From Candidatus Cloacimonadales bacterium (GTDB lineage: Bacteria; Cloacimonadota; Cloacimonadia; Cloacimonadales; JAFGVF01), in NCBI GenBank assembly GCA_963662585.1, contig OY759729.1:96001-160000 (forward strand): a stretch of DNA of 64,000 bases. The letters run 5' to 3'. Below the pieces are notes generated by a model, which saw only the letters and a list, made by a program, of their open reading frames with translations, was not told where the DNA came from and searched no databases. The position numbers and the translations under genes are program-made. Of the stretch, positions 20,301 through 43,910 are shown one piece after another; the stretch's first letter is position 1; every line of letters begins with the position of its first letter.

Positions 20301-21079
20301 TGATAGAAATAGACAATTCCTTGAAGTTGTTTGTAAAATTCATTATAAGAGATTAAATTAATTTCTGATTTTTCGTCTTCACTATTTGCAACTTTAACAA
20401 AAATAACAGCTGAATTTTTTAATTCTCCTTGGAATTTATGATTCTCTAACCATTGATTCACTAATTTAGGGAAAAATACCCTTAACTTATTGACTTCAAC
20501 TTCAACTTTAACTTCTTTTTTGAGATAATCTAAGCTTTTTATGCTAAGATTTAAATTACCTTCTTCAGAGGAAAATATTTTACTTAGAGGTTGGCCAGTA
20601 ATAAAATAATCTAAATGATATCTGGAATCACCAACAATATTAATCTTTACCTCTCCCCAATTCATATTATAGTGAAAGTCAATTTCTAGGGAATAATTTT
20701 GTTTTAAAAGAATATTTAAATCAGATAGATTTTTTTTCATATCAATTAGGCAAGCATTCATTCGGAACTCTGCTAATTCTTGATTGCCAGGAAATATTGC
20801 GAGGATAGAATCACCACCATATTTAATTAAATCACCATCATAATTATCTATAGATTCATACATCTTCTCAAAATAGCTGTTTAAAAGTTCAGTGATAATC
20901 TCTACAGAATAGTGTCCACCTTTACTGACAAACTCCGTCATTTTAGTAAAGCCTTTAACATCTGTAAATAAAACTCCTGCTTCAATACTTCTTGAGTAGG
21001 GTAGTTGACTAGGTGTAAGATCTATTTCAGAAACAATTCTTCTAATTATCCCAGGTAGTAAATCATTATAATCTATCAT
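17351..21079 (-). CDS. Adenylate cyclase with tandem class III domains, STAND-type NTPase and TPR repeats (sAC-like)
   Basis: C1 GVLFTDVKGFT...KYGGDS; C2 NKIDYTDKG...GNGVNISARLM; Walker A GISGSGKS; Walker B-like FVIENIQWID; ~40-aa TPRs (GDKxG...LG). Confidence 0.9.
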   Translation of the reverse strand: MIDYNDLLPGIIRRIVSEIDLTPSQLPYSRSIEAGVLFTDVKGFTKMTEFVSKGGHYSVEIITELLNSYFEKMYESIDNYDGDLIKYGGDSILAIFPGNQELAEFRMNACLIDMKKNLSDLNILLKQNYSLEIDFHYNMNWGEVKINIVGDSRYHLDYFITGQPLSKIFSSEEGNLNLSIKSLDYLKKEVKVEVEVNKLRVFFPKLVNQWLENHKFQGELKNSAVIFVKVANSEDEKSEINLISYNEFYKQLQGIVYFYQGTINKIDYTDKGYLILITFGVPYLHNDDIERAFICSSKISQLSQTGLKTKIGLTYNNIYSGILGASKRYEYGIIGNGVNISARLMNESLDNDFTFSSEILPHIKGRYEIECIDKVKVKGISDEIEIYHVLNELSDFWSAYQGNFGNNPLFGYKEELKEMENNLLICISGISGSGKSHLIHEFLKAKIEERASICLLVLSEFEKLKPFNLFYKMINKYLIIDNIVKDFSLIKNFVLKNNVKVDLEIIYDYFNDASKDVKEKQSSIVYDILTEIILENYQENQVFVIENIQWIDAQSFELLKKLVPRLQTENKKVILTANNDYMFNELVYYSPRKIEMKNFEVSLAKEFFKSENLTISDKAITEILALAHNNPAYIKEISLIIRQNWSDSQGVFDSGDFQYLIRNGKLPISFENVLLNDFETLDEDTKQLLKYASIMGVSFSAQLFDVFSDKFIQEHIETVLAKLTNNRHIFQKLILPEVEYYFNNSLMRDAIYRTILLKEKQKLHLIIAKYYLKNFQENLSLYYEIIANHFIMAKSKTNAVKWCILAAEKNYELSAYGVSAYYYTQAYDFCGDVKQCNEILMSLVSVHVAQNKAPEVAQYLQQIEPELLTSYQLDLYYFYKIRLYELQKDFDLFNQTYQEVKNKIQSDEILFRIKLVSFDYSRMNNSIELFTELKDELAAEINSQPATFGIIYYSILGQYYLDRAEYSLSEENYLKLNQIALEHDKRLYLRISATSLGIIHSRKGNQEQALEYFQSAITIAEEIGDKHGFAKVNTEIAMIYFAQGFDDQALTTLNNCLQVAKYIGDKQQEQTVLYNLGYIYSVLQEYSKAIEYLIKARDIALFINDKVGIAYANDGLGDALFQQQKFNEAKKIYEDNLKLQESLHDREGIAHTIGNLANILREEKNYPKALEFYQIQFDALHEIGDKIGEGKALFNWGITYEILADNAKALEKLKEALKLFKEANDINYAEFTQQQIDRISND

Positions 21080-21416: not shown

Positions 21417-24400
21417 TTATTTTTTACTTCTAGTTTTTACATTGAAGCTATCAGCAGGTGCCACCACTTCCCCATCTCTTCTCAAATAACGATGAGTACT
21501 GATAAAATCTTCTAGAGAAGACCTATCTTCACCAACGAAAGCCAAGACAAAATAGAACTGTCTATCAGCTGCTTGAGCAATATTTGCATCTGTCCAATTT
21601 AAGATACTGACATTTGCACGATATCGGAATATTCCTTGAGGGTCGTCACATGAATAAATCAAGTAAGATACATTCTCTACCGGACTTCCAGAGACTGTCT
21701 GGTTTACCTCTTCCCAAGTAAGATTTAAACTACTTCCTGCCATTGTTACTAGAGGATTTTGAGGAATAGATATTGCTTCTTCTTGAATTACTACAAATAC
21801 TTCACTACTCATAACATCGGTATAACTTCCAGTTGTCATGGTAAGAGTAGTAGTGTATAATCCAACTTCGCCATAAGTATGAGCAGGATCTCTGTCTGTA
21901 CTAGAGTGACCATCACCAAATTCCCAAAGAATACTTGTCGAAACATCATCATGACCTTCTGATTTATTATCGAATTGAATAGGTGTTCCTAAAGTAACGA
22001 ATCTACTGGTTGAATTAAAATTGACTAAGTGATGAATATAGTTCATACCCATATCAGCAACAGAACCATCAGGATCAGAAGGTAAGTTTGGATTACCAGC
22101 ATCAATACAAGTAGAATAGATATTGAGTTCTAAATTATGATTATCATCGGAATCATCAAAGTTAGGGTCAACATTCATATTTCCATCACCAGGAGCGTAA
22201 CCTGAAGCCATAGATATATCATTATACTCGAAAGTAGCGTTTACTTGATCGCCACTAGCAAGATCAGCACTTGATAGTAGGCTTCCCCAAATTATATTCT
22301 GACTAAGGTATGGAGACGAATTTTCACCATTGATAATTCTATCATAGCCTAAAATATTATTATTTAGGATTTGTATGATGTCATTATTATTAATGGTGAA
22401 GCAAGTTACCAAATCTTCTAACTGGCTTTCAAAGTGGTTATGATGAATTTGAGTTGCACATTCTTCACCAGAAAGTATAATAGCTGTAATATTGTCGATT
22501 AAGGCATTTCTTTCAATATTAGCTGAATTATTCCCACTAGCCATTAATCCAACATTAAAACCTTCAACAAGTGAATTTCTTATCCAAGCATTAGCTTGCT
22601 CAGTTAAAGTGATACCAACTCCAACATTTCTGCTAGTGTTTGTTGTATGCCTTACTCTAATATTAGTAAGTACAGGTAGAGTTACATCACTTGAATAGAG
22701 ATTAATACCATCAGTAACATTTTCAGATTCGAAATCTGTTAGCTTGAAGTTGATAAGTCCAACACTTTTAAATGCTACAGCATCAGTTCTTGAAGTATTA
22801 GTAGTATGTCTAACTCTTATATTTGTCAGAACTGGACAAGTAGGCTCAGTCCTTGTTAGATTCTCAAAATAAATACCAGTCAAGCAATCTTCAACTTCTA
22901 CAGAATCCATTACAGCTTGTATAGAACCAAGCAGTTCAATACCTCTTCCACCTAATTCACGAGAAGTATTAGTAGTATGTCTGACTCTAATATTAGTTAA
23001 GACAGGTGCAGTAGAACCTGAAGAATAGATAGAAATACCATCTTTAACATTATCAGATTCGAAATCACTTAATACTAACTTAACTAATCCACTAGTTTTA
23101 AGAGCTATAGCATCAGTTCGTGAAGTATTGGTAGTATGTCTAACTCTAATATTAGTTAGGACTGGTATTGTCTCTTCACTTCTATCACTATTATCAAAAT
23201 TGATACCTGTTACGAAATCTTCAATGATAACATCTGAAATCTGTGGTGAAATATCGCCAATGAAATCCAGTGCTTTTCCGCCAAGATCTCTTGAGGTATT
23301 AGTTGTATGTCTTACTCTGATATTAGTTAAGACTGGGGCAGTTGAACCTGAAGAGTAAATAGAAATACCATCTTTAACATTTTCTGATTCAAAGCCTGTA
23401 ATTTGTAAATCAACTTTACCAATACTCTTTAAAGCCACAGCATCAGTTCTTGAAGTATTAGTTGTATGCCTTACTCTAATATTGGAAAGAGTTGGAATAG
23501 TAGTCTCGGTTCTTTCACTATTTTCAAAATAGATTCCTGTAAGGAAATCATCTACTTCTAAAGAGTCTATCTCGGCATTTATCACTCCAATAAACTCAAT
23601 AGCTGTATCACCTAAATTTCTAGAGGTGTTAGTTGTATGTCTTACTCTAATATTAGTCAAGACTGGGGTAGTTGTTGAACTTAGAGCATCAAAGATAATG
23701 GCCTTTGAGAAGTCATCAATAACAGAGTCACTAATTCTTGGTGAGCTATTACCTTGAACTTTCACAGCATAAGTATCATCGACTCTTGAAGTATTAGTAG
23801 TGTGCCTTACTCTAATATTTGTCAAGACAGGGCTTGAAGAAGTTGAAGTTGATTTGATTTCTATACCTTTAGCAAAATCTTCAATATCAAGATCATCAAT
23901 AGTTAAATTTGAATCTTGGATTTTAACAGCTATAGCATTTTCATCTTCTGTTCTAGAAGTATTTGTTGTATGTCTTACTCTAATATTGGATAAAACAGGA
24001 ACATTGTCAGAAGAGTCTCCGAGAATCTCTATTGCTGAAGTATATTTATCGATGTCAAGATTATTTATAAGAGCTTGAGAGCTACCGATTATTTTAATAG
24101 CTGAATGGTCACTATCAACACCTTCTATATTAATTCCTGATAAGATTGGAGAAGCATTATTTATCTCAATAGCTTTAGCACTGTTTTTAAAAGTACAGTT
24201 AGTAAGACTGGAGTTATTTTCAGAGGCATTGAATTTAATTCCTTGCCATTGACTAATTTCTCTTGAGCCATTATCTGCTAAACCAAATATAACACCATCA
24301 GCGACTAAGCCACCTTCAATAACGAATTCTGTATCTTCTAAGAAGTTAATAACAGTTCCCTCTTCAATTGTTAAGGTCGTACCTGATTCAATTGAGACTT

Positions 24401-27400
24401 GGCCGTAAACATTATATGGTGAGAAGGCAACTTCCCAATTACCGAAATAGTTTCCACCAGGGATAGAAGTACCTTCGACTGTTATATAATCTTCATACAT
24501 AACACTATCTGAGGCTACCAGCATATCATCCTCGTCAATATAGGAGACTACTAAACTTATCGAGTATGAGCCACCTGTATTATATGTGAAACTAGGATTT
24601 TGTAGATTACTATCAACAGTAGTATCATTATCTAAATACCAAGCCCAATGATTTGGATTTCCAACAGTTAAATCTGTGAAGTTAACAGTTTGACCAGATA
24701 ATAGTTCTGTATCATCAGCTTCAAACTGAGCTTCATAAGAGTCAGTAATATATACTTCAAGATCTTGTGAGGTAACTAATCTTCCTGTTCCGTCACTCAC
24801 ACTAAGAGTTAAAGTCTCCATACCTACCCATTCTTCAGGAGCAGAGAAAGTAACTTCTAAACCAAGAATATCGCAAGTAATTTGATCATTTCCTGTGATT
24901 GCTAAGGACAATAAGGAAAGACTTTGTTCAGGGTCATAAAGATGATTTGCAAAGTCAATAACTTGTCTAGTAGTTTGTAACATGGAAATTGATGAAGGTA
25001 ACTCTAAGAAATGAGGAGCATCTGGAACATCAATAACTGTTACCGTGATGATATCACTAGCTACTGCTTGATAATTGTCTGTTGCAGTAAAAGTCAATTC
25101 TTCAATACCATACCAATCTAACTCAGGTCTTAAAGTAACTATACCATTTGATATTTGAGCTTGAATATGATTATTACCTGATACTCTGAAGATTAAATTA
25201 TCTCCATCTGCATCGGTGAAGTAGTTTCTTAAGTCAAGATCTTGATTAAGGCCATCTTCATTCATATTAATGTTTGGTATTGAACTAACTAAGATTGGAG
25301 CTGTATTAACTACACTGATATAATTGCTTCTTAGCAAAGAATGAGTTTCAGCATTTTCATTATGAACTGTTAATCTTACTGAGTAGTTTCCTCTCTTTTC
25401 ATAAATAAAAGAAGGATTAACTTCGTTACTATCAACAATACCATCGTTTTGGAAATCCCATTCATATTCAGTAATCTCAGAATCGTCTGATGTTTGAGAA
25501 TAGTTAGTAAAAGTAACTTCTAAATTCTTAGCACCTGTTAGTGGACTAGCATTGAAGTTAGCTGTTATTAATCTTTCTAAAACAGTCATTGTGACATAGA
25601 CTAAGGAAGTTGTATTTTCAGGATCATCCGAAGTGACTTGGATTATGGCATTATAGTTTCCTTCAGTTAAATCATAACTACTAAAACTTAGTTCTATCTC
25701 TTCACTAGCATCTGGTAAAATAGAAAGAAGAGTTGGAGCTAGAGTCAACCATGAAGTTCCACTGACTGAAATTGAAGTTATATTTAAGCTACTATTTCCA
25801 GTATTTGAAATAGTAAAATAAGCAAGATCAGTTCCAAAACGCGGAATTGAAATAGTAATTTCAGTTGTAGAAAGTTCAAGATGTGGAGCTTCTGTAGTGC
25901 TTGCACTAAGACTAACAACTTGAGAAGGATTATTTGGATCATTTGATTCAATAATTAATTCTTCATTAAAGTTTCCTTCTTCAGAACTTGCATAAGTAAC
26001 AGAAATAGTCTCACTTTCCCCAGTTTGGAGTACAAAGGCTCTATCTATAACAGAGAAAAGAGAATTCGTAGTAGTAAGAGAAATAATGCTTAAAGGAGCA
26101 TATCCTTGGTTAGTTATCTGGATATTTCTTATCTTAGGATATCCAAGATAATTTTCACCAAAATTAATCTGCTCATTTACGCTTAGTACAGGATCTCCAG
26201 ATAAAACACTTAAGGAAGTAGTTCTCTCACCTTGCTTAACATCTGTTTCATTATCATAAATTGCCAATTTCACACTATAACTTCCCACAGAACTGCTAGA
26301 AGGTAGTTGTAAGGAAGCACTTGCTTGATAACTAGCAGAGACAGATAAATCAATGATTTGAGTGGATGAATCTAAGACCTCTAAATCGGAATTAACTAAT
26401 TCATACTCAGCTCTGACGGTCTGACTATAAAGCTGACTTGTCATTACTGAGTTAACTTCTAATACCTCACCTGGATAATAGTTAGTTCTGTTGAGATTTA
26501 GAGAGTTTATAGAGGCATAAATTGGGGATTGATTAAAGACAACTTGTCCCCAGATTATCTTCGAGCTTCCAGAATCAACACCATTCACATCAAGAGATAT
26601 CTCTATTTCATTAGCAACATTCTCACCCAGGTTCATCAAAGATGGCTCTATTGCAAATTCTGTTATGCTATAATTATTGCGTGAACCAACTAATTGACCA
26701 ACCCAACTGCCATTAACAAAGACATAGTTAATCTCACCTGGATCAATATCATAAGCTCTAATTCTTAATTTTGCATATTCGATAGCTGTTTCATTAGTAT
26801 AGATGAAGAATTCAACAGGAGCATTAGGTGAATTTTCATTTATATCAACTCCCAGGTCATTATCTGCTGTTTCAAGAAACTCATTTCCCGCATTGTCTGT
26901 ATCAGTGAAATTGAAATTCGAGTGATTCAAAATCATAGGAAGAGATTTGCTTGCATTATTTGGGTCATTACTTGTGATAACGAAATTAGCAAAGTAAGAA
27001 CCAAAATTAATATTTCTAGTATCAATAGTAAGGTTAATAGTTTCTGAAGCACCTACAGCTATTGTACCTGAGACAGGGTTTGCTGATAACCAAGGAACTG
27101 CTATAGTTTCTGCAGTAAGAGAATATTCTAACTGAGATTCGCCTTCATTGCTAATTACTATTTCATCATAGAAGAGAGTATTATCCAAGATAAACCAATC
27201 TAAAGAACTTCTATTAACTAGAATTTGTGGAACATAAAGCCCCCTACCGCTCATAGTGATTTCTAGATTTTCACTATTGTTAGCATTAGAAATAATATCT
27301 AAGATAGCATTTACTTCTTCATCTCCAGTTGGTGTAAATCTTACTGTAAGGACTCTACTGTTACCTGCTTGAATATTCATAGGATTACTGATTGATGGAG

Positions 27401-30400
27401 TAGAAAGTGAAATAAAGTCAGGATGATTAGAATTTATTCCTGTAATTCTTAACACTCCTGTACCTTGATTATATAAAGTATATTCTATTTCGCTACTATT
27501 CCCTACATGAACTTCTGAAAACTCTAAGCTACTAGTTGAAGCATATATTTCAGCACTAGCCTCCATACCATAACCAGTTAAATTTACAGTCTCTTCTCCA
27601 CTAGCAATATCATTACTAACTATTACTAACTCAGCACTCTTAGAGCCTTGACTTTGAGGAGTAAAGGAAGCAGTTATTGTCCTTGAAGCTTCAGGAGCAA
27701 GGATAAATGAAGGAGGAGATACCAAGAATTCCCCTGCACCAACGCTCATAGATGATACCTGTAAGGTTGAGCTTCCATTGTTAGTAATGGTGAAAGTCTC
27801 TGTACCTGAATTTCCGATAAGCACAGAACCAAAATCAATGTCTGTTGCTGAAACAGTAATAGTTGGACTACCAGTAACTGTTAATTGAACAGGTATTGTC
27901 TGAACACCTTCAGGATCATTGCTATTAAGAACAATCTGAGCTGAATAACTTCCAGCATAAACATTTGTAGCTGTGATATTCACTAAGACACTATTATTAT
28001 TACCAGCTAGTATATTTCCAGAAGAAGGAGTTACTGATAACCAATCACTAGCATCAACACTACGACTTCTATTGTTTGTACTTTCTCTACTAACATCACT
28101 TATGACAATTTCATAAGTTAATTCTCTATCTCCTGAATTACTTATTACTAGAGATTCTTCAGTCTCTTGTCCATAATTTAAGAAAGATGAAATTGAGCTT
28201 AAAGAAAGTTCCATTATCGGCGGTAGATAGCCCTGCCCACTAAGAGAAATTGCTTCATTTCCGGCATTAGTTTGAATTTCTAAGCTTGCAGTGAATTCTG
28301 TGTTAGAATTAGGAGCGAATTCAACAGTAATATTTCCTGATTCTCCAGGAGCAAGAGAAGAAATCGATGAAACAATAGTAAAGACTCCCTCTGGAATAAT
28401 ACTAACATCAGTAATCACTAATTCATCACTACCTGTATTAACTATTGCGATATCTTCAGTTTGAGAATATTCTACAGCAACTTCCCCAAAATTGATTTGG
28501 TTGCTATCAACTGTATAATCAGGATATCCCACAACTCTCATGGATACTGGAAGATTTACTAAGTTGTTCTGAGGATCATTAGAAGTAAATCTTAAACTTC
28601 CACTATAATCTCCACCATAAATACCTGTTGGATCAAGGGTAATGTTTATATCTTGATTCTCTCCAGCAGGAATTGTTCCGGCAATATTATCTGCTGATAA
28701 CCAGCGACCATCATCTACTTGGAAGAGTGGACCAGCTATATCACTTACCCAGACATCTTTTCCATTGTTAGCAAAGGAATAAATAACACTATTATCATAA
28801 AATACTTTTTCCTTGGTAACAACAATCGAGCCATTTACTAATCTAAGTTGAAGTATCTTTCCACCTGTGATTTCTTCGTTTTCAATAACATTCTGGAAAG
28901 CCCATAGTTCATTATTATAGTAATGTCCAACCCAGGCTAATTGACTGATATTTTTTCCTAAATAAGCACTGTAAGTGTTGATTATCTCACCACTATGAGA
29001 AACCCTATAAATAGTAGTCATAGCCTCATCGCCGAATGCTCTGTTTAGCAAGAAGCTATCTCCAACATAGGTAATCGCTGGGAAGTAATCTACTGGAGAA
29101 GTAAAACTTCCTATAGGAGGATTTGAACTAGTATTTAAAGTAGTAGGGTCATATCCATAAACATTACCTGATTGATTACCAATCCAGAAATAAGTACCAT
29201 CATAGGTAATACCATAAGGTAGGGTATGAATAGGATAAGATGCTGTAACTTGATTAGTTTCAATGCTGTATTTAACCAACAATCCGCTTGTTTGATTTTC
29301 ATTATCTTTATTATAATCGACAATATAGAGTTCGTCATTTAACCAATACATTCCAGCATTCCAAACAGGCATATTAGGATAAGTTGCTATTTGGTCTCCT
29401 AAGAATCTGCCTTGGTTATCTTGATTTATAACATAATTAGGTAATTCATTTCTTAGCATATTCCTACTTTCATCAGCATAGAGTCCGATTGGACTTAACT
29501 CATTATTAGTAGAGAAATTCTCCCCTCTTTCATTTGTTTCATCCAAAGCTAGAGAATAGTTTAAATCAGAACCACCTGTATTAGATAATCTAACAACTTG
29601 AGTATCTTGACTATCAATAGTTAAATCTACAAGTAATGAAGCAGGATTTACAGAAATAGTAGGTTGGCCTTGAGCAATAGCAGTTAATTCAATTTGATAT
29701 TCACTATTGCTAAGATCATTTGAAACAAGAGTTAATATTGCTGTTTTAACTCCACTACTTGTAGGAGTAAAGGAAACACTAATCGCTTGCGAGACTAAAG
29801 GCTCAATCTGATAAGTTGTTTCAGTAACAGAAAACTCTGCACTATTAAGATTAATATTGCTTATTTCTAAAACAGAAGTTCCGGCATTTGAAATCACCAG
29901 ATTCTCTGTAAGAGTTTGTCCTACGAAGCTAGTAGCAAATTCAATCTCATCTGAGGAGACAATAATGTTTGCATCTCCATTTACCTCAAAACTTACAGGA
30001 ACGATTGTTACAGGAGTTTCAGCATCATTACTATTAATAATAAGGTTAGCTTGATAGCTTCCAGCAAATAAGTTACTTGCATCATAGTTCAAATTAATAA
30101 TTTGGTCTTGACCAACTAGCAATGAACCTGATACTGGGCTGAGAGTTAACCAGTTGAATTCTCCAATATTATCATCAATTCTATATAGTTTAGGACTTTC
30201 TACAAGATCAGGAGCAATCCATAAATCTCGTCCGTTATGAGCAAGTGCATAAGATATACCAGAGAATTCACTATAGTTAATCTGATTTAGAATTGAAGCG
30301 GTAGCTGGGACTAACTGCCTGAGCTTATTAGCAGAATAATCAAGAGTCCAAAGCTCGCCACCTGTGTGATCAGTAACCCAAACCATTTGATTGATCTTAC

Positions 30401-33400
30401 CGTTGAAATTAGTCTGAATAGCAGAACTGATAACATTACCAGTAGTATCTACATTATAGATTTGAGGATTATTATTCGAAGAAGAGCATACTATAAAGTT
30501 ATCTCCATTCCAAGCCATTGCAGGATTACCCAATAGTGTATTAGTAAATTGTGTTACTAAATTTCCACTTAAATCATAAGAATAGAAAGTACCTGTTGAA
30601 GAGCCTATCCAGAGATTATTTCCATCATAAGTAATACCAAAAGGTGAATTATGAATAGGATATTGAGCTATAACTTCTTGGCTTGTAATATCATATTTGT
30701 AGAGTTTGTTTTGACTATAACTTACAACAAATAAATAGCCATCAACCCAAACCATACCTTTATTACTGACAGGAAGATTCTCAAATTCTCCCGTAACAAT
30801 ATCACGACTTTCTACTTCTTCTATCTCAAGATTGAAATTAAGTTGCTCACCCTGAACATTACTAATAGTGAGTTCTTGAGAAGTCTCTGTCCCACTACTT
30901 GCTTGAGCCGAGAAAGTAGTTTGAGAAATAGCAATTTGTGGAGTATAAACCCCACTACCTGATAGTTCTATAGTTCTGATAACTGTTCCAGGTAGATTAC
31001 TTGTGAAGCTTAATTCTGAATCATATGCTGTTTCAGCTTCAGGTGCAAAAGTAAGTACTATTCTCTCACTCCCATTAGCAGGAATGTTTAATTCAGTAAC
31101 TTGAGTAGAGAACACATCATTGTCGATATTAAAATCATTTAGACTTAGTATATCACTTCCTGTATTTGTTATTAAGACAGATAAGGTATCTGAATAACCA
31201 ATAAAGCTATTTCCAAATTCAAGACTAGCTGGAGAAATTACTAGATTAGGAATACCAGTAACAGTAACATTTAAAGGAATCTCTATATTATCTTCATCAG
31301 GGTCATTGGAAGTTAATTCTATTATTTGGTTATAGCTTCCTCCAATTATATTTGTAGCATCAAGATTGATATCAATCGAAGTTACCTCACTTACTGCTAA
31401 TTCACCTGAGGTCGTGGAGAAGGCTATCCAACTAGGAATAGTCGATACTTCACTTTCAGTAATAGCTGCGTTGCCATAGAGAACCCCAGCTGTTTGATAA
31501 GTTGAGTTATCTCTTAGATCTTCTTGGTCAAAATTCCAGTAACCACCCAAGTCTTGTTCGTTTCCCACAAGCCTAACATTGCGGTAGTTATTAATCTGAG
31601 TCTGACTTCTAGCACTTTCCCAAATTCTAAATTCATCAATTGCACCATCAAAGCGATACCAATTACTTCCTGTTTGATTCATCTTTCCTAAGATCCATGG
31701 GTCATAGTTGCCACTAAAGGCGACCACAGACTCTTCAGAGATTAAAGAACCATCAAGATAAACTTGCAGAACATTATCACTATAACTAACTGCTATATGA
31801 TACCACTGTTGAAGTTCAATATTATTCGCTACTAAGAACTCTCTATTAGTACCATTATTAAGAGCTATTTTTAAATTCTTATCAGTAACTTCATTATCAA
31901 TTCCGTCAGTATAAATACCAAAAGAACCATTTTGTGAAGCAGTTGATTTACTTATAATACACTGCTTACCTCCATTATAGAGGGAACCATTAGAGCGTTG
32001 ACCTAAGTTAGAATCAACTCTAAACCACATTTCCACAGCGAAGCTTCCACCGTATAATTGAATTGAAGCTCTATTTCTGATATAGCCATAATCAACTGTT
32101 GAAGAGTTAAATCCATCGACTTCAAACATCTTACCGAAATTATCTTTAATATTCCAAGTGAGATTATTTCCACCAGTATTGCTTAACTCTAAAGTTTCAG
32201 TAATAGTTTCTCCCACGCTCATAGCAACTTGATATTCATTAGGATTATAAGTAACTTGAGGAGCTATTGATCCTTGGCCACTAACTGGAATAACTAAAGT
32301 AGCTTGGTTATCAGCATTACTTATAATAGTTATGTTTCCTGTATATTGCTCAACATTAGTTGGACTAAAAGTAACATTAAATACTAACTCTTCATTAGTA
32401 TTCAAAATACTTCCTGCATAATCAGAATCTAATATAAAGTTAAGATTATCAGAAGTAATTTCTGTAATCTCAAGAGCAGCAGGTCCTACATTGCTTACTA
32501 TTATTGACTTACTATCAGGAGTAATTGTGTAAATATTGCCAAAATCAATGTTACTCTGTGAAACTTCGATATAAGGTACATTAGCAATACCAATACCTGT
32601 CAGGGATAAAACTAAGGCAGGAGTATTTGTTGCATTGCTAAAAATACTTAATTCACCTTCTACTTGACCTAAAGCTGAAGGAGTAAATGTGACTATTACT
32701 TCTTGAGTTTCATTAAAAGCTATACTTGCAGAATCTACATTGCTTATGAAATCTGCATGATTACTATTAATTTCAGTAATTACCAAATCAGCATGACCTG
32801 TATTTGTAATAGATAGAACTTCTTCTTTGCTTTCATTTTCTAGAACTGTACCAAAATCAAGAATTTGATTCTCTACTAAGATTTCAGATTCGAAAGGTTT
32901 AACTTCAAAGTTGGAAGTTAAAAGTGCTTGTTGAAGATTACTGATATTATCATAGACAATGACTTGAAGTTCATAAATTCCAGGTGTATAATAGTCTGCT
33001 ATTTCTAAGCTTTCGCTAATAGCATCACTTTGAGTTCCATTGATAGTGAAAACCCTCGAGCTACCAGTAACTATTGTTTGCCAAGGCGAATAGATTGTAG
33101 TCTCTACTCTAATTTCTTGAGAAGAAAGATTAGTATCTATCTCTTCAGTAACTTCCACAGTTGCTCCAGCATAATAAGAACTCTTATCTAAATCGATATA
33201 TCTAATAGAAGCATTAAGACTACTATTATCATAGCTTAACTGTCCCCAATCTACTTTGATAGTATTACCTACGAAATCTGTATCAACCTGAATTTCCACT
33301 TTATTAACTAAAGTACTACTTAGATAACTAGGCTCAAGATCAAATAGAGTAGTTGTCCAACTATTAGCTATTCCTCTTAATTCACCAAGGATATAACCAT

Positions 33401-36400
33401 TTAGATAAACAGAATGAACTCCTCCATTAGTATCATCTACATTCCAAGCTCTAATACTTAGATTAACTGTTTCTGGATCAGGATTATTACTAAATATATT
33501 AAATTCAATTGGAGCATTATTATTATTATAACCAATATTGATATCTAAATCATTATCGGCAAGCCCTTCCCCACTATTGTTTTCATTATCAAAGTCAGTA
33601 ACATTATAGACCTCTCTCACAAGCTCAAAATCTACTGAAGTTGACTCACTGCCTGGAACATTACTTACTACCTCAAAAGAGCTGTTGTAGATGCCTGCAA
33701 CTAAAGTTCCAGGATTAACTGTAATAGTTATTGTCTGTTCACTTTCAGGTGCTAGTTGACCCATAAATGGATTGAAGCTTATCCAGCTATCATCAGCATT
33801 GAGATTATACTCTAAAGTAGAAGCACCATTGTTTCTAATTATAATAGTCTCTGTATCTACTCCATTTCCTAAAACATAGAAATCTAAAGCTTGAGCTAGA
33901 ATTTCAATAGCTGGTGGATTGATTGCTTGACCAAAGAGAGAAATTACTAAAGGATTATGAAGATAATCTGTGGAATTAATATTCAAAGAAGCATCATCAT
34001 TACCAATAGCTTCCGGATTAAATGTTACTTCAATACTTCTACTCTGCCCTACTGGTATTGTAAAATTCTGATAATTAACAGAATAATAGTTTCCTGTTGT
34101 TGAGATATTGTTCACTATAAGTGGTGAAGTTCCTATATTACTTATTACTAGTGGTAAAGTTTCATTACTATTAGTAAAGACATAACCGAAATCTAACGAA
34201 GTGGTAGAAACTTCAATTTCAGGTAAACCAAGCACTGTCATAAGAACAGATATTTGAATATTATCTTGATAAGGATTATTATGGCTAATCTCTATATTAG
34301 CATGATAAATTCCTGCTACTAAAGTCTCTCCAGAGAAAGTAAGATTAACTATTTGACTTCCTTCAGGTGTTACAACTCCTATTGTCTCAGAGATATCCAC
34401 CCAGGTACTTATTCCTTCCTCAGCATAAGTTACAGATTCAATCGCCCACTCTAAATCACCTAGTCCAGTATTTTCTATGGTTAAAGTACTAGGGAAAGAT
34501 TCTCCAGTTAAGACTGAAATTGTATATTCTTCCGGTCTTACAGCTATTTGCGAAGTTGGATAAAGCTCTACTAGGAAACTCATACTAAGTTGATCCGAGT
34601 GATTATTATAAGCAGTAAGTTCTATCTCTGCTAAACCATACATATCTTCAGAGAAACTTAATGTCAATGTTGTATCATCTAAAGAAGTTGTTACTAGCTC
34701 TTCATTTGTATTTCCAGTAATAACGAAAGAATTTATCTCACTGTCTATATCTCCAAATCTATCGATTAAGGAGATGATAATGTTATCACTATTCATAGGT
34801 TCAAGAAGATCATCAATCTGATTCTGAATATATATCGGATCATCTACTGGAGTAACTATTACTTGAACACTATCACTAGCTATAGCTCTAGATTTACTGA
34901 CATTTACTCTGGCAATCCCTTCTCCTGCTTGATCATCAACAGTGAAGTAAAGGACTTCACTACCATTCCAATCAGGCATAGCTGAGAAAGTTACCATAAA
35001 GCCATCAATGGAAGTATAGATATAATCACCTAAATTACTAGATAATATTAATTGGTCTTCTTCATCAATATCTGTGATGTATTCTGAGAAATCGACCTCT
35101 AAATTACCATCTTCAGCAAAGGTGAAGCTATCCGGAAGAGTTAAGTATGGATTATGGTTAACTGCGTTTATGGTAATATAATCTTCTTTTGTCTCTGTCA
35201 CCGAACCACTATTATTACTTATCGTAAGAGATACTGTAAATACCCCGGATTCTGTATAAGTGTGATATGGATTCTCCTCTGTAGAAGAATTTCCATCTCC
35301 AAAATTCCAATAATAAGAAGTTATGTTACCTTGAGATTGGTTAATGAATTGGATCTCATCAAACTGTGTTGGATTTGTATCTGTAACATTAAATTCTGGT
35401 GTTAGATTTAATATTGCCATTATATAGTTTGAACCATACCATGAACCAAGCGAGATTAAATAATTATCTATATTAGCATGAGCTAAATAACTACTAGGCC
35501 GGTTATGTTCATGACGAGATGCATAATAATATCTTGTACTTGAGTAAGAAGGGTCACCATTTCTTTTTACATAAGCACTATTTCTATAATTTGGTAACCC
35601 AATACCATCATATAAAGCTAGCAAATCGCCACCATCGTTGTAGTAAGAAACTAAATCATTCCAATCTGCAACGCGATAATCACTTCCAAGAAGATCATTA
35701 ATTATCTGGTCCCAGTTCGATGAATCTTGATAATTTAAGGTTGTTCTAGCATACTCCTCATAGATTATTACACTATTTTGAATTGTTATATAATCTTCTT
35801 TAGTCTCAGTATTACTACCAATTTCATCAGAAACTGTCAAAGATACAGTATATAAACCTGCATTTTGATAAACATGGATAGGGTTTTCTTCTAAAGAGCT
35901 GTTACCATCTCCAAATTCCCAATAATAATCTGCTTCTCCTTCGGTCGATAGATTATTAAATTGAATCTCTTGACCTGTTATAGTGCTAGTTGTAGAAGCA
36001 TCAAAGTCGACTAATAATTGATATATTTCTATCTCAACAGCATTAGAAGCTTCAGATTCCCCTTCATCATAAAGAGCTGTAACATTATAACTATAGCTAT
36101 GACCATGTACTAAATTTGTATCACTAAAAAGAGTGTCTAGAACGACCTCATCATTTAACTGAATACTATCACGATAAACATTATAGCCTTGTAAGGCTCT
36201 ACTTTCTTGACTTTGAGAATCTACTGCAGACCATGTTAAAATAACTGAACCATTAACAATATTAGCTTGCAAGTTAGCTGGTGGTGATGATAGTTGAGTT
36301 TCATATCCTTCCCAGGCTAGATGAGGATAATCATTGGCTACAAATGTCCAAATATCCTCTTCCCCATTCTCTGTTTCGTCAGTAAAATCCCAGCCGGCAT

Positions 36401-39400
36401 CTATATAGGTTGAAAGGGTTTGCATTTCTGGTGTTGTTAATCCTGTTCCACCTTGACTTGTTGTTTGATTGGAGATATTGATATCCCAGAAGGAGTTATT
36501 TATTGAACCATTATATAGAATACCAATAAAACCACCAACATAAGAGTTTCCAGCAACATTTCCTGTTGAGTAACAATTGTTTATTTCTATTGCATCATAG
36601 ACTCCAAGCAAACCACCAACAAAAGAATTTCCATTTACAGTTGCTTTGGAATAACAGTTTCCTATGGTTGAAGAGTATGATGAATTTCCCATTAATCCAC
36701 CTACATTGATACTACCATTTACTGTTCCCTTGGAGTAACTACCAATAATTGTTGAAGAATGAAAATAGCCTACTAAACCACCAACATATTTTATTCCATT
36801 CACAGAACATAAGGCAAAGCTATTCACAATATTTGACGAAAGAGAATGTCCTATTAATCCAGCAACTTGCTCATTTCCCGTTGTTTCTATATTGACTAGA
36901 CCAATATTAGATATATCCGCGTTTTCGATGTAACCGAAGAAACCAATACAGATAGTAGTAGGTCTGTTTATATAAAGATTTGAGATTTTATAACCTTGAC
37001 CATTATAGATTCCTTTGTACGAATTATAATTAGAAGAACTTAAATAGTAACCAATCGGACTAAACCCTGCCCCTTCATCCCAATTTTGAGTATCAGAAGC
37101 ATCGATATCAGCAGTCTGCTCAATATAAACTCCCTCAGCCCAATAATTGTTATTCTGACTAAGTATATATAAATCAGTTAAATTATCTATTAAATATGGA
37201 TTAGCTTCTGTTCCTTCTCCACTTAAAAATAGATAAATAGCTTCAACTTCTACTTGATTCGAAGCATCAGATTCCCCTTCATCATAAACAGCTGTTACAT
37301 AATAATTATATGTATGGCCATGTTCTAAATCTGTATCACTAAAGAGAGTGTCTGTAACGACCTCTTCATTAATCTGAATACTATCACGATAGACATTGTA
37401 GCCTTGTAAGGCTCTACTTTCTCGCGATTGTTGTAGGGGTGCAGACCATGTGAGATTTATAGATCCGTTTATAGAAGAAACTTGAAGATTAGAAGGAGCT
37501 ACTAATTCTAACTCACCTTCACCAAAATAAATATTGTCTATATCAAAATAATAGTCATTGACTGTATCATCATTCATTTCAAATCTAAAAATTACCGATT
37601 GATTTGCATAAGAACCGATATTAATTGAATAGGTAGCATATTCAATTGAATTAACATGATTTATAGCGTTTATTTGGTTTATTGCAGTAAAAGTATAGCC
37701 TCTATTAGTTGAAACTGTTGTTATAAAGTAATCATGATTCTCAATTAGAACAGTGGCAGGATGTGGAGCACTATAATCTACAATTCTATAATCGAAAGTA
37801 AGTACAGAGTTTGATGTAATGTTATTCATAGACTGGAATTGAACAAAAGCATTAGAAGAAGTACTATAAATATTTTTACACAGAGTATTATTGGTATTAC
37901 CATGTCCTGATTCAGTTATACTCATATTTGTGTTTGTAATATAAGTAACTGGAACTGTTGTAGATCCTTCGAAATCGATAGTAACAGGCATTGGAATAGT
38001 TGGGTCAGGAATTGTAGTAAATGACCAAACTAAGACACCTTCAGTAGGTTGACCAACAACATTATAAGGAAGAACTTTCCAGTAATAAGTTGTTTCGTAA
38101 TCTAAGCCACTGTAAGCATAGCTTGTTCCAGCTTGATCTACAGGAGTTGTTGTAGCAAATGTTTCATCTGTTGATAAGTAAACATTATATCCACTTGCAC
38201 CAGTAGCAGTTGACCATGTTAAACTTCCACTAAGTGGTCTATTAGTTGATGCATCTGCAGGGTCTAAATAAGTAACAGCAGTAGGAGCAGAACCAAGGGT
38301 AGTAAAGGTCCAAGTAGCAACTAAGGTATCAGCAGTTTCACCAGAGTAATTGCGGTTAATAACTTTCCAGTTATAAGTTGCATTTGGAACTAGATCAGTT
38401 GCTTGATAAGAGTTAACAGCTACAACATTATCAAGAACTAGTTGCATTTCACGAGCACCTTCTACCCCAAGCCATAAGTCTATAGTCTCAGTATAGTTAG
38501 CATTTGTCCAAGCAAGAGTTAAGCTAGTAGGTATATCAATAGCTTCATCAGTAGGTGATGGAGAAGTAGCAGCTGCTGGAGCTGGTAGGGCATCAGCTGT
38601 TAAGTTGATAGTATAATCAATACTTTGCGGTGAAGGATAACTTGAAATAATTAGATAATAAGGTCCAGCAGGAATAATCTCATTAGTATAAGTCAAAGTT
38701 GTACTTGAAGAAGTTTTTGATAATATAACTTCAGCAGGAGTAGTTGCATTAGGTTCATCTCCAAGAATGAAAGCACCAATCCAGCTACCTGTTGTAGTTA
38801 TTGTACCATTAAGCAACATTGTATTTGCTAAGGTAAATTGATAAACAACATCATCTCCATTCAGATAAGAACTACTTGGAGAAATCCAAGTAGATGAATA
38901 GTCATCAACAAAGTCAATAGTATTACCTGTAACATCAACAGCAGGCAAGGTTAAAGGAAGTGGATCGGCACAAGTAGAACCTTGTGGTGGTAGCCATCCT
39001 GAACCTGTAAGAGTAACTTCATTAGCATTTCTGTTGGTGTTTCTGGCTTTAGAATTAGTATTAAGAACAATTCTTCTACCAAGGTCATCATTAATGACTA
39101 AAGTAGCTACTTTAGCACCAAAAGCATCAGGAGTAAAGGTAACAGTTAATTCTAATGTTTCACTGTTCTCTAAAGCCATGTCTGGTGTTTCTTCAACATA
39201 ATCCCAGGCAAAGAGAGCTGCATCAGTTCCGATAATTCCAATATTACCAATATTTAATGTACCAAAACCAACATTAGTTATTGATACCCTTTGTGCACTT
39301 GAAGATTGTAATACTGGAACATCCCCGAAATCTATCTCACTTACACTTAGTTCAGCTAAAGGGCCTTCAGGAATTTCTTCAAATGTTATATTATCAAGAT

Positions 39401-42400
39401 ATACATAGTCATAGGTAGTTGCAAAAACTGGAAGGAATACAATTCTTTCATTAGCAAGAGCAGCTTCAAATTCGACAACGGTTTGCTCATAAGTTAATGG
39501 CACAGCAAAAGTATCAACAACTGTAAGTGTTGTAAAATCTGTATCATACTTTGCTAAGATCATGTCTGTTCCAGCATCACCTTTCATCCAGAATCTTAAT
39601 CTGTAACCACTCAAATCAGGAACAAGGTTAGGAGATATTAACTGAAGACTAGCCGCAACATCATTAGCATTAGAGAATCTGATAGCTGCAGTACCATCTT
39701 GGACATTACTAGTAGTATTATTCAATGTTATGCTTGCAGTAGTTGAACTAGATTCAATAATCGTAGACCAACCAAGGAGATCACCTTCGAAAGATTCGTT
39801 CCAAGGTAAATCACTAGCATAGATATTTGTATCTATTGAATTCCCAACTAATTCTACTGTATGAATGGCTCTATTTTGATCATCAGTAATGACTAATTGA
39901 GCTGTATGGTCTCCCTCAGTAGTAGGAGCATAAAGAACTTGAACTGCGATATTCTCTGAAACCTCAAGACTTGCTGGATAAGTATTATTATCAGTTAGTA
40001 GGAATTGATTAGCATTTGTTCCTGTAAGAGAAAGACCATTAATGCTAAGAGTTGCGAAACCAAAATTTGAAATAGTCAAGTTTTGAACAGCACTTTCAGT
40101 ACCCATTATTTGATCAACAAAGTTTAAAGTATCGGCACTGACTGCAAATACAGGTTCAAGTGATAATTCTTGGAAAGTAAATCCAGAAACAGGTCTGTAT
40201 GCTTTTAGAGTACCTGAAGGGATACTACCAGGGAAGCTAGTATAATAATTTGTTCCATCACTGCGTTGGGTTAATGATCTATTTCCTGCTACAGGATAGT
40301 TATAGAATTCATCTGAATTACTATGATATCCTGATTGTGTAGCAAAGAAAAGTACAACTAAATTATCTGTATTATTATAGATAAATGGACTATTAAAATC
40401 GAATGTCACAATTGCTTCGCTAGTAGTAACATTCATAGTTCCACTATATACATGTGTAAAATCATCTAGTTCCCAGTCATAAGTATCAGCAAAAGTATCT
40501 TTGCTTGTATGTTTTAAGTAAATTTCAACAGTCTCTGACCAAGCTGAGTTTTTGTTATAGAGATAAGAAATTGAAGTAATAGCTGAACCGTCAATATTCA
40601 ATTCTTCTTGAAGATAGATATTTTGAGTAATTGTATAGCCATAATAAGGTTCCATTGGCATACTCTGATTTACAGTTCTTACACCATCAAATACTAAATC
40701 AGCAGCAGGGAAAGGTGATAGACCTGTTGTAAATGACCATATTTCAATACCTTCAATTGGCATTCCTACCACATTATATGGAACAATTTTCCAATAATAT
40801 CTAGTATCATAATCACTACTATAAGCATAACTTGTAGCAGTTTGATCTACAGGGGTGACGCCAGTAAAAGTATCATCTGTTGAGAAATAGACATAGTATC
40901 CATCAGCACCTGTTACAGAAGCCCAAACGATATTACCAGTAAGGGCAACACCAGTAGTATCATCTGCAGGGGAAGTATAAACTGCAGCTGCAGGAGCTTC
41001 TCCTGTAGTTGAGAAAGTCCAAGTAGTAACTAAGGTATCTACTGTTTCCCCAGTGTAGTTGCGATTAACAATAGCCCACTCATATTCACGAGCAGTTTCT
41101 AAAGTTACAGCATACTCTTCAACAGCAGGAATATCTTCTTCTACTAATACCATTGACCCAGCATGACCAAAATAAATATCTATAGTCTCGGTATAAACAG
41201 CATTATCCCAAGTGAGAGTCAAGTTAGTTGGTTGGTTTTCTGCTTCATCAGCAGGGGAAGGATTTGAAGCTACACCTGGAGCAGGAATATTTTCAGTGTT
41301 AATAGTCATTATAAATTCACCATTATTTGTGTTATAACCAGTTACTATTATATAGTAATCTCCAGCTGGAGCTAATGATTGATTCATTTTTGACCAAGCA
41401 GCTCTATCTCTAGTTTTAGTTTCTTCAATAAATCTTCCACCTGTACCAGCACTACCTTCATCATCATTGTAATACCAAGCATCACTAGATTGATTTGCAG
41501 TATCTATTTGGTCGAAAGAATTAAATACATATAGTTTTGTATCCCATAAGGTTCCTTCTAAAGAAATATCCATAAGTTTAGAAGTAGGAAGGGTTAATTT
41601 ATAAACTACAGATTGACTTGAACAGAAATTATAACTAACATTATAAGGAGTAGTTGAATGTTCTACTACAATTGAATCAGCTAAAGTTAGAACAAAGGGA
41701 GCGTTGTGATCATTACCTGTGTTATCTAAGATATCCACAGTTAAAGCAACATCAAGGTTAATTGGTACAAATGGATTACCTGGATCTGTCTGTTTCAATC
41801 TTAATGTTGAAGTATGAAGACCCATTAAAGTTGTTAATGGAGTTACATCAAGAGTAATTGAAGCTTGTGGTTCTAAAGTTATAGGATATTCATTCACATC
41901 TGACAAAATAAAGTAGTTTGTATTTAAAACAGAAGCTTCAATAATTTCAGCAGCTAGTCCACCTACATTAGTAAGTGTTACAGTAACAGGTGTTTCTACA
42001 ACATTGCCAAATAAATAGCTACCAAAATCAACTGCCTCAGGAGAAAATTCCATGATAGCAGATGTTGGTATTTCTTCTATATTTACATCATCAATATAGA
42101 TATATCTATAAGTTCCACCAGAACCATTTTTGAAAGAAACATGATTTACTGCACGATCAGCAGGTAAGTCGATGATATAAGCAGTATAAGTAGTTGTTAA
42201 AGCTAAAGTATCTAAAGCTACAAAAGTAGATTCATCCATAGCCTCAGACATTGTACCCACAATTAATGGGTAGCCTGCACCATTAGCTTTAGCATTAAAT
42301 CTAACTCTATTTCCAGCATTCTCAAGTTTTGGAGTAGAAGCTATTAAGCTTCCTGTTGTTGCAGAACTATTATAGAGTCTGTAAGAATTAGGACTTGTTA

Positions 42401-43166: not shown

Positions 43167-43910
43167 CTCGCATCTCCTTTTTAGCAAAGTGTTTAATTAT
43201 TATTCATACATTTCTAATAACAATTTCCTATTAAATCGCATATTTTTGAGAATAGATTGTAGTTTTTTTTCTAAAACAAGCCTGATTCTCAATGCAAAAT
43301 ATGCACTTATGATTAAAATTATAAGTGTGGTGATATTTTTAATCACTAGCATATTCATTTTATAAATTCAAAGATCATTTAAAAACTGTCACATTTCCGT
43401 TATTATTGCATATCGGTGGTGGTATTTAACGAAAGTAACTGTTTTTATAAATCAAATATTTACTTACTATAACCATCTATATTCATTTTTATTTAACACT
43501 TTAAATGATGTCTTGTCAACAGATAATTTTTATTATTTTAAGTTAATGAGAAGATTGTTAATGGATGCTGTTATTAGTCAGTTAAGGTATTCTCAACTTG
43601 TCATTACCTTATCTTTTATTGCTTAGTCTCACTCATCTCTATAAGAATTCAGATAATCTTTAAGTTTAATGATAAGGAGAGATTTGAGTTAAATAGAAGA
43701 GCAAGCTTGATAAAGATTGATATTAGGCAGAATAGTATTTTTTTTCATAAAATTAATCTATAAGTAAATTTTAATGAAGTGAGAGAGTCAATCATCCTAA
43801 TCTAAGTGCTTTAGTATAGGATTTGAAGAAAGGTAGAAAATATTTATAGACTCAAATCTCCTATAAATTTTTATGGAGCAAATAATAAATTATAAAAAAA
43901 GGATAATCAA

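Follow-up and report, generated by a model that had tools for sequence, protein, structure and literature searches.

Here we report a repeated 12-residue peptide, NIRVRHTTNTSR, which occurs nine times in a 7256-aa open reading frame (ORF; 21417..43187, minus strand) of a Candidatus Cloacimonadales bacterium, and which we read, at about even odds, as the signature of a two-coil right-handed beta-helix repeat of the PbH1/NosD type, displayed as a cationic comb on a surface stalk and forming a face for multivalent binding of a partner that is periodic and probably anionic. The window, meaning the whole stretch of DNA that was analysed, is 64,000 nucleotides long, and all coordinates given below are counted from its first letter.

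All nine copies are exact matches to NIRVRHTTNTSR and lie on the minus strand, at 23952..23987 (aa 6401-6412), 23784..23819 (aa 6457-6468), 23619..23654 (aa 6512-6523), 23448..23483 (aa 6569-6580), 23289..23324 (aa 6622-6633), 23118..23153 (aa 6679-6690), 22959..22994 (aa 6732-6743), 22788..22823 (aa 6789-6800) and 22629..22664 (aa 6842-6853), numbered here as copies 1 to 9. Successive copies are 56, 55, 57, 53, 57, 53, 57 and 53 aa apart, in agreement with the spacing of 53-57 aa given in the preliminary description, and alignment (A2) resolves the array into nine units of ~55 aa (22518..24005, minus strand). Fourteen columns are invariant across these units, namely P and L and then NIRVRHTTNTSR itself. 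As had been noted at the outset, the copies are identical while their flanks diverge: the two codons specify one and the same residue in all 432 pairs compared within the motif, but in only 505 of 1520 (0.332) in the flanks. The codons themselves vary synonymously, again as described before, with His encoded by CAT or CAC, Arg by AGA, AGG, CGA or CGT, and Ser by TCT, TCA or AGC. Searching the organism's own 3.3-Mb genome with a degenerate DNA version of the 12-mer gave nine matches, all within the gene for the 7256-aa protein; the reversed pattern, used as the control, gave none.

The N-terminus of the giant ORF resembles a signal peptide, and domain searches found many Ig-like (HYDIN/ASH), PKD, fn3, LamG and GLUG segments along its length, with the motif array sited in the C-terminal part. 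The array would sit in a putative right-handed beta-helix domain (~aa 6250-7060; 22008..24440, minus strand), the boundaries of which are our own reading of the translation and not the output of a tool. This domain would begin with degenerate coils, continue through the nine motif-bearing two-coil units and finish with C-terminal coils, the last of which end, in the translation, in a DP..F..D....L....S.CIDAG-type sequence that we take to be the usual beta-helix C-terminal cap. Between the helix and the protein end lie a PKD domain (21816..22019, minus strand), identified by Pfam-type domain search, and a conserved domain of ~120-135 aa (21420..21824, minus strand), which has no curated model, was recognised by comparison of relatives and forms the protein end in 56 of 105 motif-bearing relatives. 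Judged from these relatives, helix, PKD domain and unmodelled end domain appear to be a conserved C-terminal cassette behind N-terminal domains that vary, and we therefore take the helix to be a surface-protein stalk. No type IX sorting domain (Por_Secre_tail or FlgD_ig) was found in the 7256-aa protein by domain search; of the 130 Por_Secre_tail matches in the genome, not one falls within this gene, and a sorting domain of this type is present in four of 25 relatives (P0011, P0029, P0042 and P0048). Neither tRNA genes nor Rfam families were detected in the window. RNA-library contigs of one study, mostly 95-99% identical to the stretch, match it in 30/30, 29/30 and 19/30 bins in X4, X6 and X10, respectively, a hint of transcription that DNA carry-over could also produce.

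The case for a beta-helix fold comes mainly from relatives and profiles. Over 22500-24200 there was no match to a beta-helix family in Pfam, even at E<=10, and none in NCBIfam, and PDB sequence and profile searches returned nothing for the repeat region, only PKD matches and weak matches to beta-helix enzymes outside the motif units (the best being the fructotransferase 8hsn, E 0.0045). A Pfam match to Spc110_C on the array (E 7.5e-8) was discarded as a repeat artefact, as no single stretch passes. Among 25 relatives, 10 have NosD, Beta_helix or Pect-lyase Pfam matches, and in nine of the 25 the best such stretch overlaps the motif units. The NosD_copper_fam model (TIGR04247) gives local sub-threshold matches in six of seven relatives, the best of them scoring 85.1 bits, far below the curated 300-bit cut-off for membership, and leaves the window protein unmatched. 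The ESM Atlas contains no model of the region; the nearest clusters in it are NosD/Beta_helix (0.92), which we treat as no more than a lead on the fold. In a profile of 767 units from 118 proteins, the conserved positions are P (.94), N (.95), three Arg (.88,.77 and.86) and two Gly (.84 and.90). A coil periodicity of ~22-28 residues is present in this profile, with N (.95) at position 6 and N or D (~.6) at position 35, and with the G of a G-[ILV] strand start at positions 22 (.84) and 44 (.90). When the halves of the unit were compared by hhalign, the first half aligned with the second once an insertion of 7 residues in the first was allowed for (E 0.0024, probability 12%, a short and weak alignment), which gives two coils per unit and bears out the earlier placement of the motif on every second coil. 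We read these profiles as suggesting that the ~55-aa unit comprises two PbH1/NosD-type coils.

Such coils share a common skeleton, [IL]-x-[ND]-x-x-[IV] ... G-[ILV]-x-[ILV] with its conserved Asn, in PbH1/CASH-type families (Beta_helix PF13229, NosD PF05048, TIGR04247), and the models of these three families match homologous units in the relatives. The N-I-R-V-R of the motif would correspond to the ordinary Asn-plus-strand part of this skeleton, and what appears special is the HTTNTSR loop together with the Arg pattern. Unlike PbH1/CASH-type repeats in general, the Cloacimonadota family repeats a fixed pair of coils (~55 aa) as one unit, has an Arg-bracketed 7-residue Ser/Thr/Asn loop on every second coil and three Arg conserved at.77-.88, and carries a loop that is uniform within each protein and specific to that protein; in addition, our own repeat sequence falls below detection for all curated models.

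A database search with the repeat gave 690 matches at E<=1e-3, and among the best 150 of these, 110 are matched by the repeat HMM and show the family signature TPTLTN[IV]R[IV]R[NH]-x5-R. By this comparison NIRVRHTTNTSR appears to be the genus-specific form of the signature. Across the phylum, 85 of 232 Cloacimonadota genomes match the repeat family, and every multi-copy pattern locus comes from a Cloacimonadota-labelled MAG, with the exception of one record labelled 'uncultured bacterium'. Seven single pattern matches in other phyla are chance, and the two-coil repeat family thus far seems to be found in Cloacimonadota only. We found no curated model of the motif and no paper on it, which agrees with the initial impression that it is not a described one.

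The peptide is also maintained over evolutionary time. Among five same-genus orthologues, motif codon pairs show 43.7% synonymous and only 2.8% non-synonymous differences, compared to 29.7% and 36.5%, respectively, between the motifs, and the same contrast between motif and flank was seen in 10 proteins from different genera. The orthologues thus keep the motif almost perfectly, and variability in orthologues, which the preliminary description had named as a refutation, is not what was seen. Near-zero amino-acid change amid high synonymous change therefore indicates that the invariance reflects selection on the protein and not recent DNA copying, the interpretation favoured from the outset.

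The loop behaves differently within and between proteins. Loop identity is.914 within proteins and.302 between them, whereas the corresponding values for the flanks are.343 and.232, and 67 distinct majority loops were counted among 81 proteins. Even paralogues within one genome (G008, G003, G036 and G046) carry different loops. A tree built from the flanks only mixes the units of four proteins, with 18 label changes against a shuffled mean of 17.6, and contains a cross-protein clade (support 97/95) made up of our own units 4, 6 and 8, one G011 unit and one G007 unit. Together these patterns point to concerted evolution of an unusual form, apparently confined to a 7-residue predicted surface loop.

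The charge pattern of the protein is uneven. Its pI is 4.05 overall, and 4.05 also for the repeat region minus the motifs, and yet 27 of the 33 Arg and all nine of the nine His of the repeat region lie inside the motifs, which substantiates the basic stripe in an acidic protein that had been pointed out earlier. An acidic residue occupies the partner position of the two strand Arg in 52% and 63% of units; covariation between Arg and acid was not pair-specific, a similar trend being found in every basic/acid column pair tested. Two of the functions initially suggested for the motif fared less well. At the His position the unit profile shows no conservation of His across the family, Asn being usual there and His genus-specific, which argues against a family-wide His/metal site, and we rejected it. 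The N-T-S had been considered as a modification site, however an N-x-[ST] sequon is kept in just 55 of 81 majority motifs, so that N-glycosylation does not define the motif; with Ser, Asn and Thr making up 74% of the loop, its composition by itself is expected to produce sequons. The Bacteroidota-type O-glycosylation motif, D-[ST]-x, is absent from NIRVRHTTNTSR and was ruled out.

How might such a comb be built? We infer the in/out orientation of residues, the loop contacts and the ridge from sequence periodicity. According to the profiles, the N of the motif would be the ladder asparagine of its coil and the I and V would face the core, with the two Arg of R-V-R pointing outward on the strand, above acidic positions of the adjacent short coil. 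HTTNTSR would then be a 7-residue Ser/Thr/Asn-rich loop insertion, present on every second coil only and closed by the third Arg. Nine units would thereby set identical polar, cationic loops at regular intervals of about two coils along one flank of an otherwise very acidic helix, like the teeth of a comb, and the most likely job of this comb would be multivalent binding of a periodic, probably anionic, partner. If every tooth had to match the others, this would account for a loop that is constant inside one protein and changes from one protein to the next. Beta-helix polysaccharide lyases offer a partial parallel, if the Arg-bracketed loop that follows the Asn-plus-strand is taken as T3. In lyases of this fold, passages of PMC9410043 place the substrate groove at the T3 loops and the PB1 sheet, hold specificity to depend on loop variation, and describe the T3 loop/PB1 groove of FdlA-type fucoidan lyases as positively charged for a polyanionic substrate. 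However, neither catalytic residues nor a lyase family match were found in the Cloacimonadota repeat, the loops of which are identical and periodic whereas lyase loops are individually shaped. Another parallel is provided by ice-binding and ice-nucleation beta-solenoids, in which short Thr-rich motifs are repeated coil after coil. As in these proteins, identical short polar motifs (Thr, Ser, Asn) would be set out in a regular surface array, but here the motif would sit on alternate coils, is Arg-rich, varies between proteins and has no sequence match to them.

Could the same features arise with no ligand at all? A purely structural ladder, in which layers of Asn and of Arg/Glu (possibly Arg/Tyr), together with identical in-register loops, stiffen a long stalk, is a possible explanation, although one we regard as rather unlikely. 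Stacking of like residues, be it as asparagine ladders or as aliphatic or aromatic stacks, stabilises beta-helices according to sections of PMC9410043, and both the paralogue-specific loops, which argue for a constraint within the molecule, and the acidic residues opposite Arg in 52-63% of units would suit such a role. Chlamydial Pmp proteins are relevant here, as they too have short signature motifs recurring on the coils of a long beta-helix and are surface adhesins; adhesion through short Pmp repeats has reportedly been seen. Their analogous FxxN/GGA(I,L,V) repeats are, according to PMC11166332, part of a larger coil repeat and predicted to be structural, with side loops carrying the function. 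The likeness to Pmps has limits, in that no sequence relationship to the Cloacimonadota repeat was found, Pmps are autotransporters whereas the giant protein lacks such an end, and Pmp motifs have 4 residues, compared to the invariant block of 12-17 residues with a protein-specific loop seen here. Moreover, the three Arg are conserved (.77-.88) far above their presumed acidic partners (.52-.63), a structural ladder has no obvious need for near-zero amino-acid change in orthologues at saturated synonymous divergence, and copies of the motif that stand alone outside any helix would have no stacking partner.

These stand-alone copies are the basis for a further, more doubtful alternative, in which a block of ~16 residues is a portable recognition peptide that either would be recognised in trans, whether by a protease, a docking partner or an enzyme that modifies it, or would dock onto itself, with the helix as its display. 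In a same-genus genome, one PVLTNIRVRHTTNT block occurs in a secreted FGE-sulfatase-like protein of 263 aa (G001:C118, locus L086), and the codons of this block differ synonymously from those of the nine copies that the giant gene of the same genome contains. A phage head-gene cluster likewise includes a very basic ORF of 39 aa in which TPTLTNIRVRNSSQTSR occurs; over 33-53 nt, the DNA of this phage motif shares 79-91% identity with motif copies from 14 Cloacimonadota genomes, all belonging to one family. For these two single copies, a portable peptide recognised in trans fits better than a ridge bound to a helix. However, each case comes from a single lineage. The two phage contigs with TPTLTNIRVRNSSQTSR are 98.5% identical to each other, other motif variants were not found in viral contigs, and the 39-aa peptide had no tblastn match in the phage collection. 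The FGE-like copy is the sole isolated copy among 12 genomes of the family, and in metagenome contigs the protein had no close relative (best 42% identical) and the motif was absent from loci L100-L194. That paralogues of one genome carry different loops makes a single strict genome-wide reader unlikely, the sequon is as inconstant as described above, and no modifying enzyme is encoded adjacent to the giant gene. An extended version of the same idea, to which we give little weight, holds that the block would be a self-contained docking peptide with the protein-specific loop as its address. Helices would display many such blocks for like-with-like or partner-specific attachment, the phage would have captured one as its 39-aa peptide to dock on or interfere with the host helix, and the FGE-like protein would use one likewise.

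Finally, the suggestion that motif invariance is a DNA-level effect of recent duplication or gene conversion, with the peptide under no selection, is contradicted as a sole explanation and highly improbable, as identical-residue pairs differ in codon in 38.7% of cases in the motif (167/432, 0.387) against 49.7% in the flanks (251/505, 0.497) of the same gene, in-register identical DNA between any two motif copies runs for at most 23 nt (median 14), and synonymous change among the orthologues is higher in the motif (0.437 vs 0.297) with non-synonymous change 13-fold lower. Copying has nevertheless left traces. A DNA tandem repeat (330-nt period, 2.8 copies, 72% matches; 22759..23674, no strand assigned) marks a more recent duplication, within part of the array, of a double unit of 110 aa (units 3-8), and flank identities are 0.58-0.72 among units 3, 5 and 7 and among units 4, 6 and 8. 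The loop also changes in concert within proteins; for example, all five of the full units in the G008 orthologue have a loop one residue shorter, as does the final unit of G004. In two proteins, the motif is synonymously less diverse than its flanks (0.23 vs 0.49 in G041 and 0.16 vs 0.38 in G008c), and some homogenisation at the DNA level has therefore taken place too.

Cloacimonadota, as yet uncultured, are anaerobes that abound in digesters and sediments, and to our knowledge their cell-surface biology is essentially unknown. The present analysis delineates a large family of repeats and, with it, a C-terminal cassette of helix, PKD domain and end domain, both absent from curated libraries, and the cassette, with its diverse N-terminal domains, would allow better annotation of hundreds of giant proteins now listed as 'hypothetical' or 'PKD domain'. 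A loop that is identical within a protein, free between proteins and selected at saturated synonymous divergence predicts multivalent recognition. The stand-alone phage copy may in turn open a way to study how phage and host make contact in a phylum from which no host has been cultured.

The motif array lies within a giant open reading frame of 7256 aa (window 21417-43187, minus strand). A script run on its translation recovered nine exact copies of the 12-residue motif NIRVRHTTNTSR at aa 6401-6853, at spacings of 56, 55, 57, 53, 57, 53, 57 and 53 aa; the nine identical copies of the preliminary description are thus not an artefact, and the synonymous codon variation it had listed among them was found again. 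It had also pictured basic motifs in an acidic protein. Indeed, the giant protein is very acidic (pI 4.05), while 27 of the 33 Arg and all nine His of the array fall within motifs. In the organism's 3.3-Mb single-contig genome, a degenerate DNA pattern for the 12-mer matched nine times, always inside the giant gene; the reversed-pattern control gave zero matches, and a shorter pattern with two mismatches permitted revealed no extra sites there. Elsewhere in the giant protein (window 25188-43187, minus strand), the translation shows large internal duplications: a pair of 'ADNDL...' modules and a pair of beta-propeller-like stretches, with runs of Ig-like domains after each.

An exhaustive, profile-free protein search returned 690 proteins at E<=1e-3, and an HMM of our nine units (the ~55-aa, probably two-coil, repeat carrying one motif) matched 110 among the best 150 of these. 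Nearly all 110 share the signature TPTLTN[IV]R[IV]R[NH], then five residues, then R, of which NIRVRHTTNTSR is the local form. In the family profile (767 units, 118 proteins), P stands at.94, N at.95 and the three R at.88,.77 and.86, with two Gly at.84 and.90. Scanned with a DNA pattern, a collection in which each prokaryotic species is represented by a single genome gave 41 loci. All multi-copy loci came from records labelled Cloacimonadota or Cloacimonas, except one labelled 'uncultured bacterium'; seven single matches in other phyla were out of frame or unrelated. The unit model matched 85 of the 232 genomes sampled from the phylum, and the source annotation calls the family proteins only 'hypothetical' or 'PKD domain-containing'.

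The preliminary description recognised no described motif, and this holds. The motif strings were not found in any paper of the searched literature library, and the window's own array had no match among the models of Pfam or NCBIfam, with E values up to 10 admitted, nor among PDB sequences. A Pfam Spc110_C hit (window 22500-24200, E 7.5e-8) was rejected as a repeat artefact, because no single stretch passes and the score arises by adding up the nine identical motifs. The relatives, however, do match known models: 10 of 25 carry NosD, Beta_helix or Pect-lyase Pfam matches, over the motif units in nine of the 10, and the NCBIfam NosD model gave local, sub-threshold matches in six of seven. The nearest ESM Atlas clusters were likewise NosD/Beta_helix (score 0.92), a lead only given their low recognition. 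The motif units are thus of a known fold type but form an unmodelled variant that has so far been encountered in Cloacimonadota alone.

The unit consensus has two halves with a common skeleton, [IL]-x-[ND]-x-x-[IV]-x ... G-[ILV]-x-[ILV]. In a short and weak profile-profile alignment (E 0.0024), the first half equals the second plus seven residues, which in our protein are exactly HTTNTSR, and opposite the two strand Arg an acidic residue is found in 52% and 63% of units, respectively. Because of these features, we infer that the motif N would be the ladder Asn of a coil and I and V core residues; the two Arg would face outward on the strand after the Asn, opposite the often-acidic positions, and the remainder would be a loop inserted on every second coil and closed by the third Arg. 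In beta-helix lyases, according to a passage of PMC9410043, the T3 loop and the PB1 sheet form the ligand groove, and the Arg-closed loop would be T3 in standard nomenclature. The best reading, to which we give an even chance, is that the array forms a periodic comb of cationic loops on a stalk helix, presenting a multivalent binding face. That it is a purely structural ladder is possible but rather unlikely.

The loops are uniform within proteins and differ between them. Across seven proteins, loop identity was.914 within and.302 between proteins, compared with.904 and.694 for the core block and.343 and.232 for the flanks (array residues outside motifs). The 81 proteins that have four or more full units show 67 different majority loops, 74% Ser, Asn or Thr in composition, and a protein has its exact majority 7-mer in a mean of 62% of its units. 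By its flanks, our last unit most resembles the final units of three other proteins (.53,.41 and.29), whereas it reaches at most.23 with any other unit of its own protein. In a flank-only tree of four proteins, built on only 36 columns and with many forks unresolved, units were mixed as if labels had been shuffled (18 label changes versus a shuffled mean of 17.6), and one supported clade (97/95) joined our units 4, 6 and 8 with one unit each from two relatives (G011 and G007). Judged from these comparisons, the units are older than the split between the proteins, so concerted change of the loops must have come later than the divergence of the units. The process is seen at work in the G008 orthologue, where each of the five full units has a loop one residue shorter, and in G004, where the last unit does. 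Such uniformity within proteins, together with differences between them, is an unusual evolutionary signature.

It is improbable that the motif is a portable peptide recognised in trans, and stand-alone copies keep this reading alive. A secreted FGE-sulfatase-like protein of 263 aa in a same-genus genome (locus L086 270-1061, plus strand; G001:C118) carries a single PVLTNIRVRHTTNT block within an insertion, its codons differing synonymously from the nine helix copies of that genome. It is the sole isolated copy among 12 genomes of the family, and metagenome contigs yielded no close relative of the protein. Our genome and its relatives carry a greatly enlarged set of FGE-sulfatase-like domains, with 15 matches in the former and as many as 40 in one of the latter, G013. 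The full family motif also occurs, as TPTLTNIRVRNSSQTSR, in a very basic 39-aa phage ORF (14 Lys or Arg) with its own ribosome-binding site, found on two viral contigs (L200 1920-2039, minus strand; the same ORF in L198) that count as one phage because they are 98.5% identical. The head-gene cluster runs terminase, portal, 39-aa ORF, acidic 320-aa ORF and major head protein. Over 33-53 nt, the DNA encoding the phage motif aligns at 79-91% identity with motif copies from 14 genomes that belong to a single Cloacimonadota family. The phage and a host locus of this kind agree in G+C content, at 55.1% and 55.4% respectively. Against a portable peptide with one genome-wide reader, paralogue loops differ within each of four genomes (G008, G003, G036 and G046), which argues instead for constraint within each molecule or partner pair; in G014, G051 and G004 paralogue loops are alike.

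The preliminary description had attributed motif invariance to selection on the protein rather than recent DNA copying, and the codon counts bear this out. Within the gene, none of the 432 motif codon pairs differs in residue, yet 38.7% use different codons; in the flanks, 33.2% of pairs agree in residue, and the codon differs in 49.7% of these. Identical in-register DNA between any two motif copies reaches 23 nt at most (median 14). Full-length same-genus orthologues, 64-73% identical across the 751-aa query, preserve the nine copies at unchanged positions with scattered single changes only. In five orthologues, synonymous and non-synonymous differences were 0.437 and 0.028 for motif codon pairs and 0.297 and 0.365 between motifs. 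DNA homogenisation as the sole cause is rejected on these codon differences, within the gene and between orthologues, and is given almost no weight. Of 10 proteins, eight showed motif synonymous diversity similar to that of the flanks and two showed less, and a 330-nt tandem repeat in the array (2.8 copies, 72% matches) indicates that units 3-8 include a younger double-unit duplication. Selection is still the main force, alongside concerted loop change. One same-genus genome (G002, one contig, 96% complete) yielded no motif-helix orthologue by protein query, unit model or DNA pattern, unlike the other five, in which it is present; the gene may therefore be dispensable.

No modifying enzyme gene lies near the giant gene. 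Directly downstream is a 1242-aa adenylate/guanylate cyclase-AAA ATPase-TPR protein (window 17351-21079, minus strand), and the giant-gene orthologues of G003, G004, G006 and G008 have the same neighbour after them, in G008 beyond a gap of ~4.5 kb. RNA-library contigs span the array stretch, which does no more than hint at expression. The window also encodes two other probable surface proteins: a 784-aa ORF (60844-63198, plus strand) whose end matches a type IX secretion (T9SS) sorting domain (C1:158941-159186), and a 1181-aa LamG/pentraxin-PKD-fn3 protein (49203-52748, minus strand). The giant protein has no such sorting domain, although its genome has 130 matches, and four of 25 relatives end in one. 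Instead, a common ~120-aa domain ends 56 of the 105 relatives with at least three units, and forms the last ~120-135 aa of the giant protein (window 21420-21824, minus strand). It is separated from the last unit by about 240 aa that include a PKD domain, stops a median of 8 aa (always within 28) before the C-terminus, and has no curated model in Pfam or NCBIfam. Possibly it serves in sorting or anchoring, in place of the T9SS C-terminal domain found in a few relatives. N-terminal parts vary across the family (Ig-like, GLUG, NIDO, VWA and LRR domains). Given this variation beside a conserved end domain and PKD, the helix, PKD and end domain would form a common stalk or anchor cassette of diverse surface proteins.
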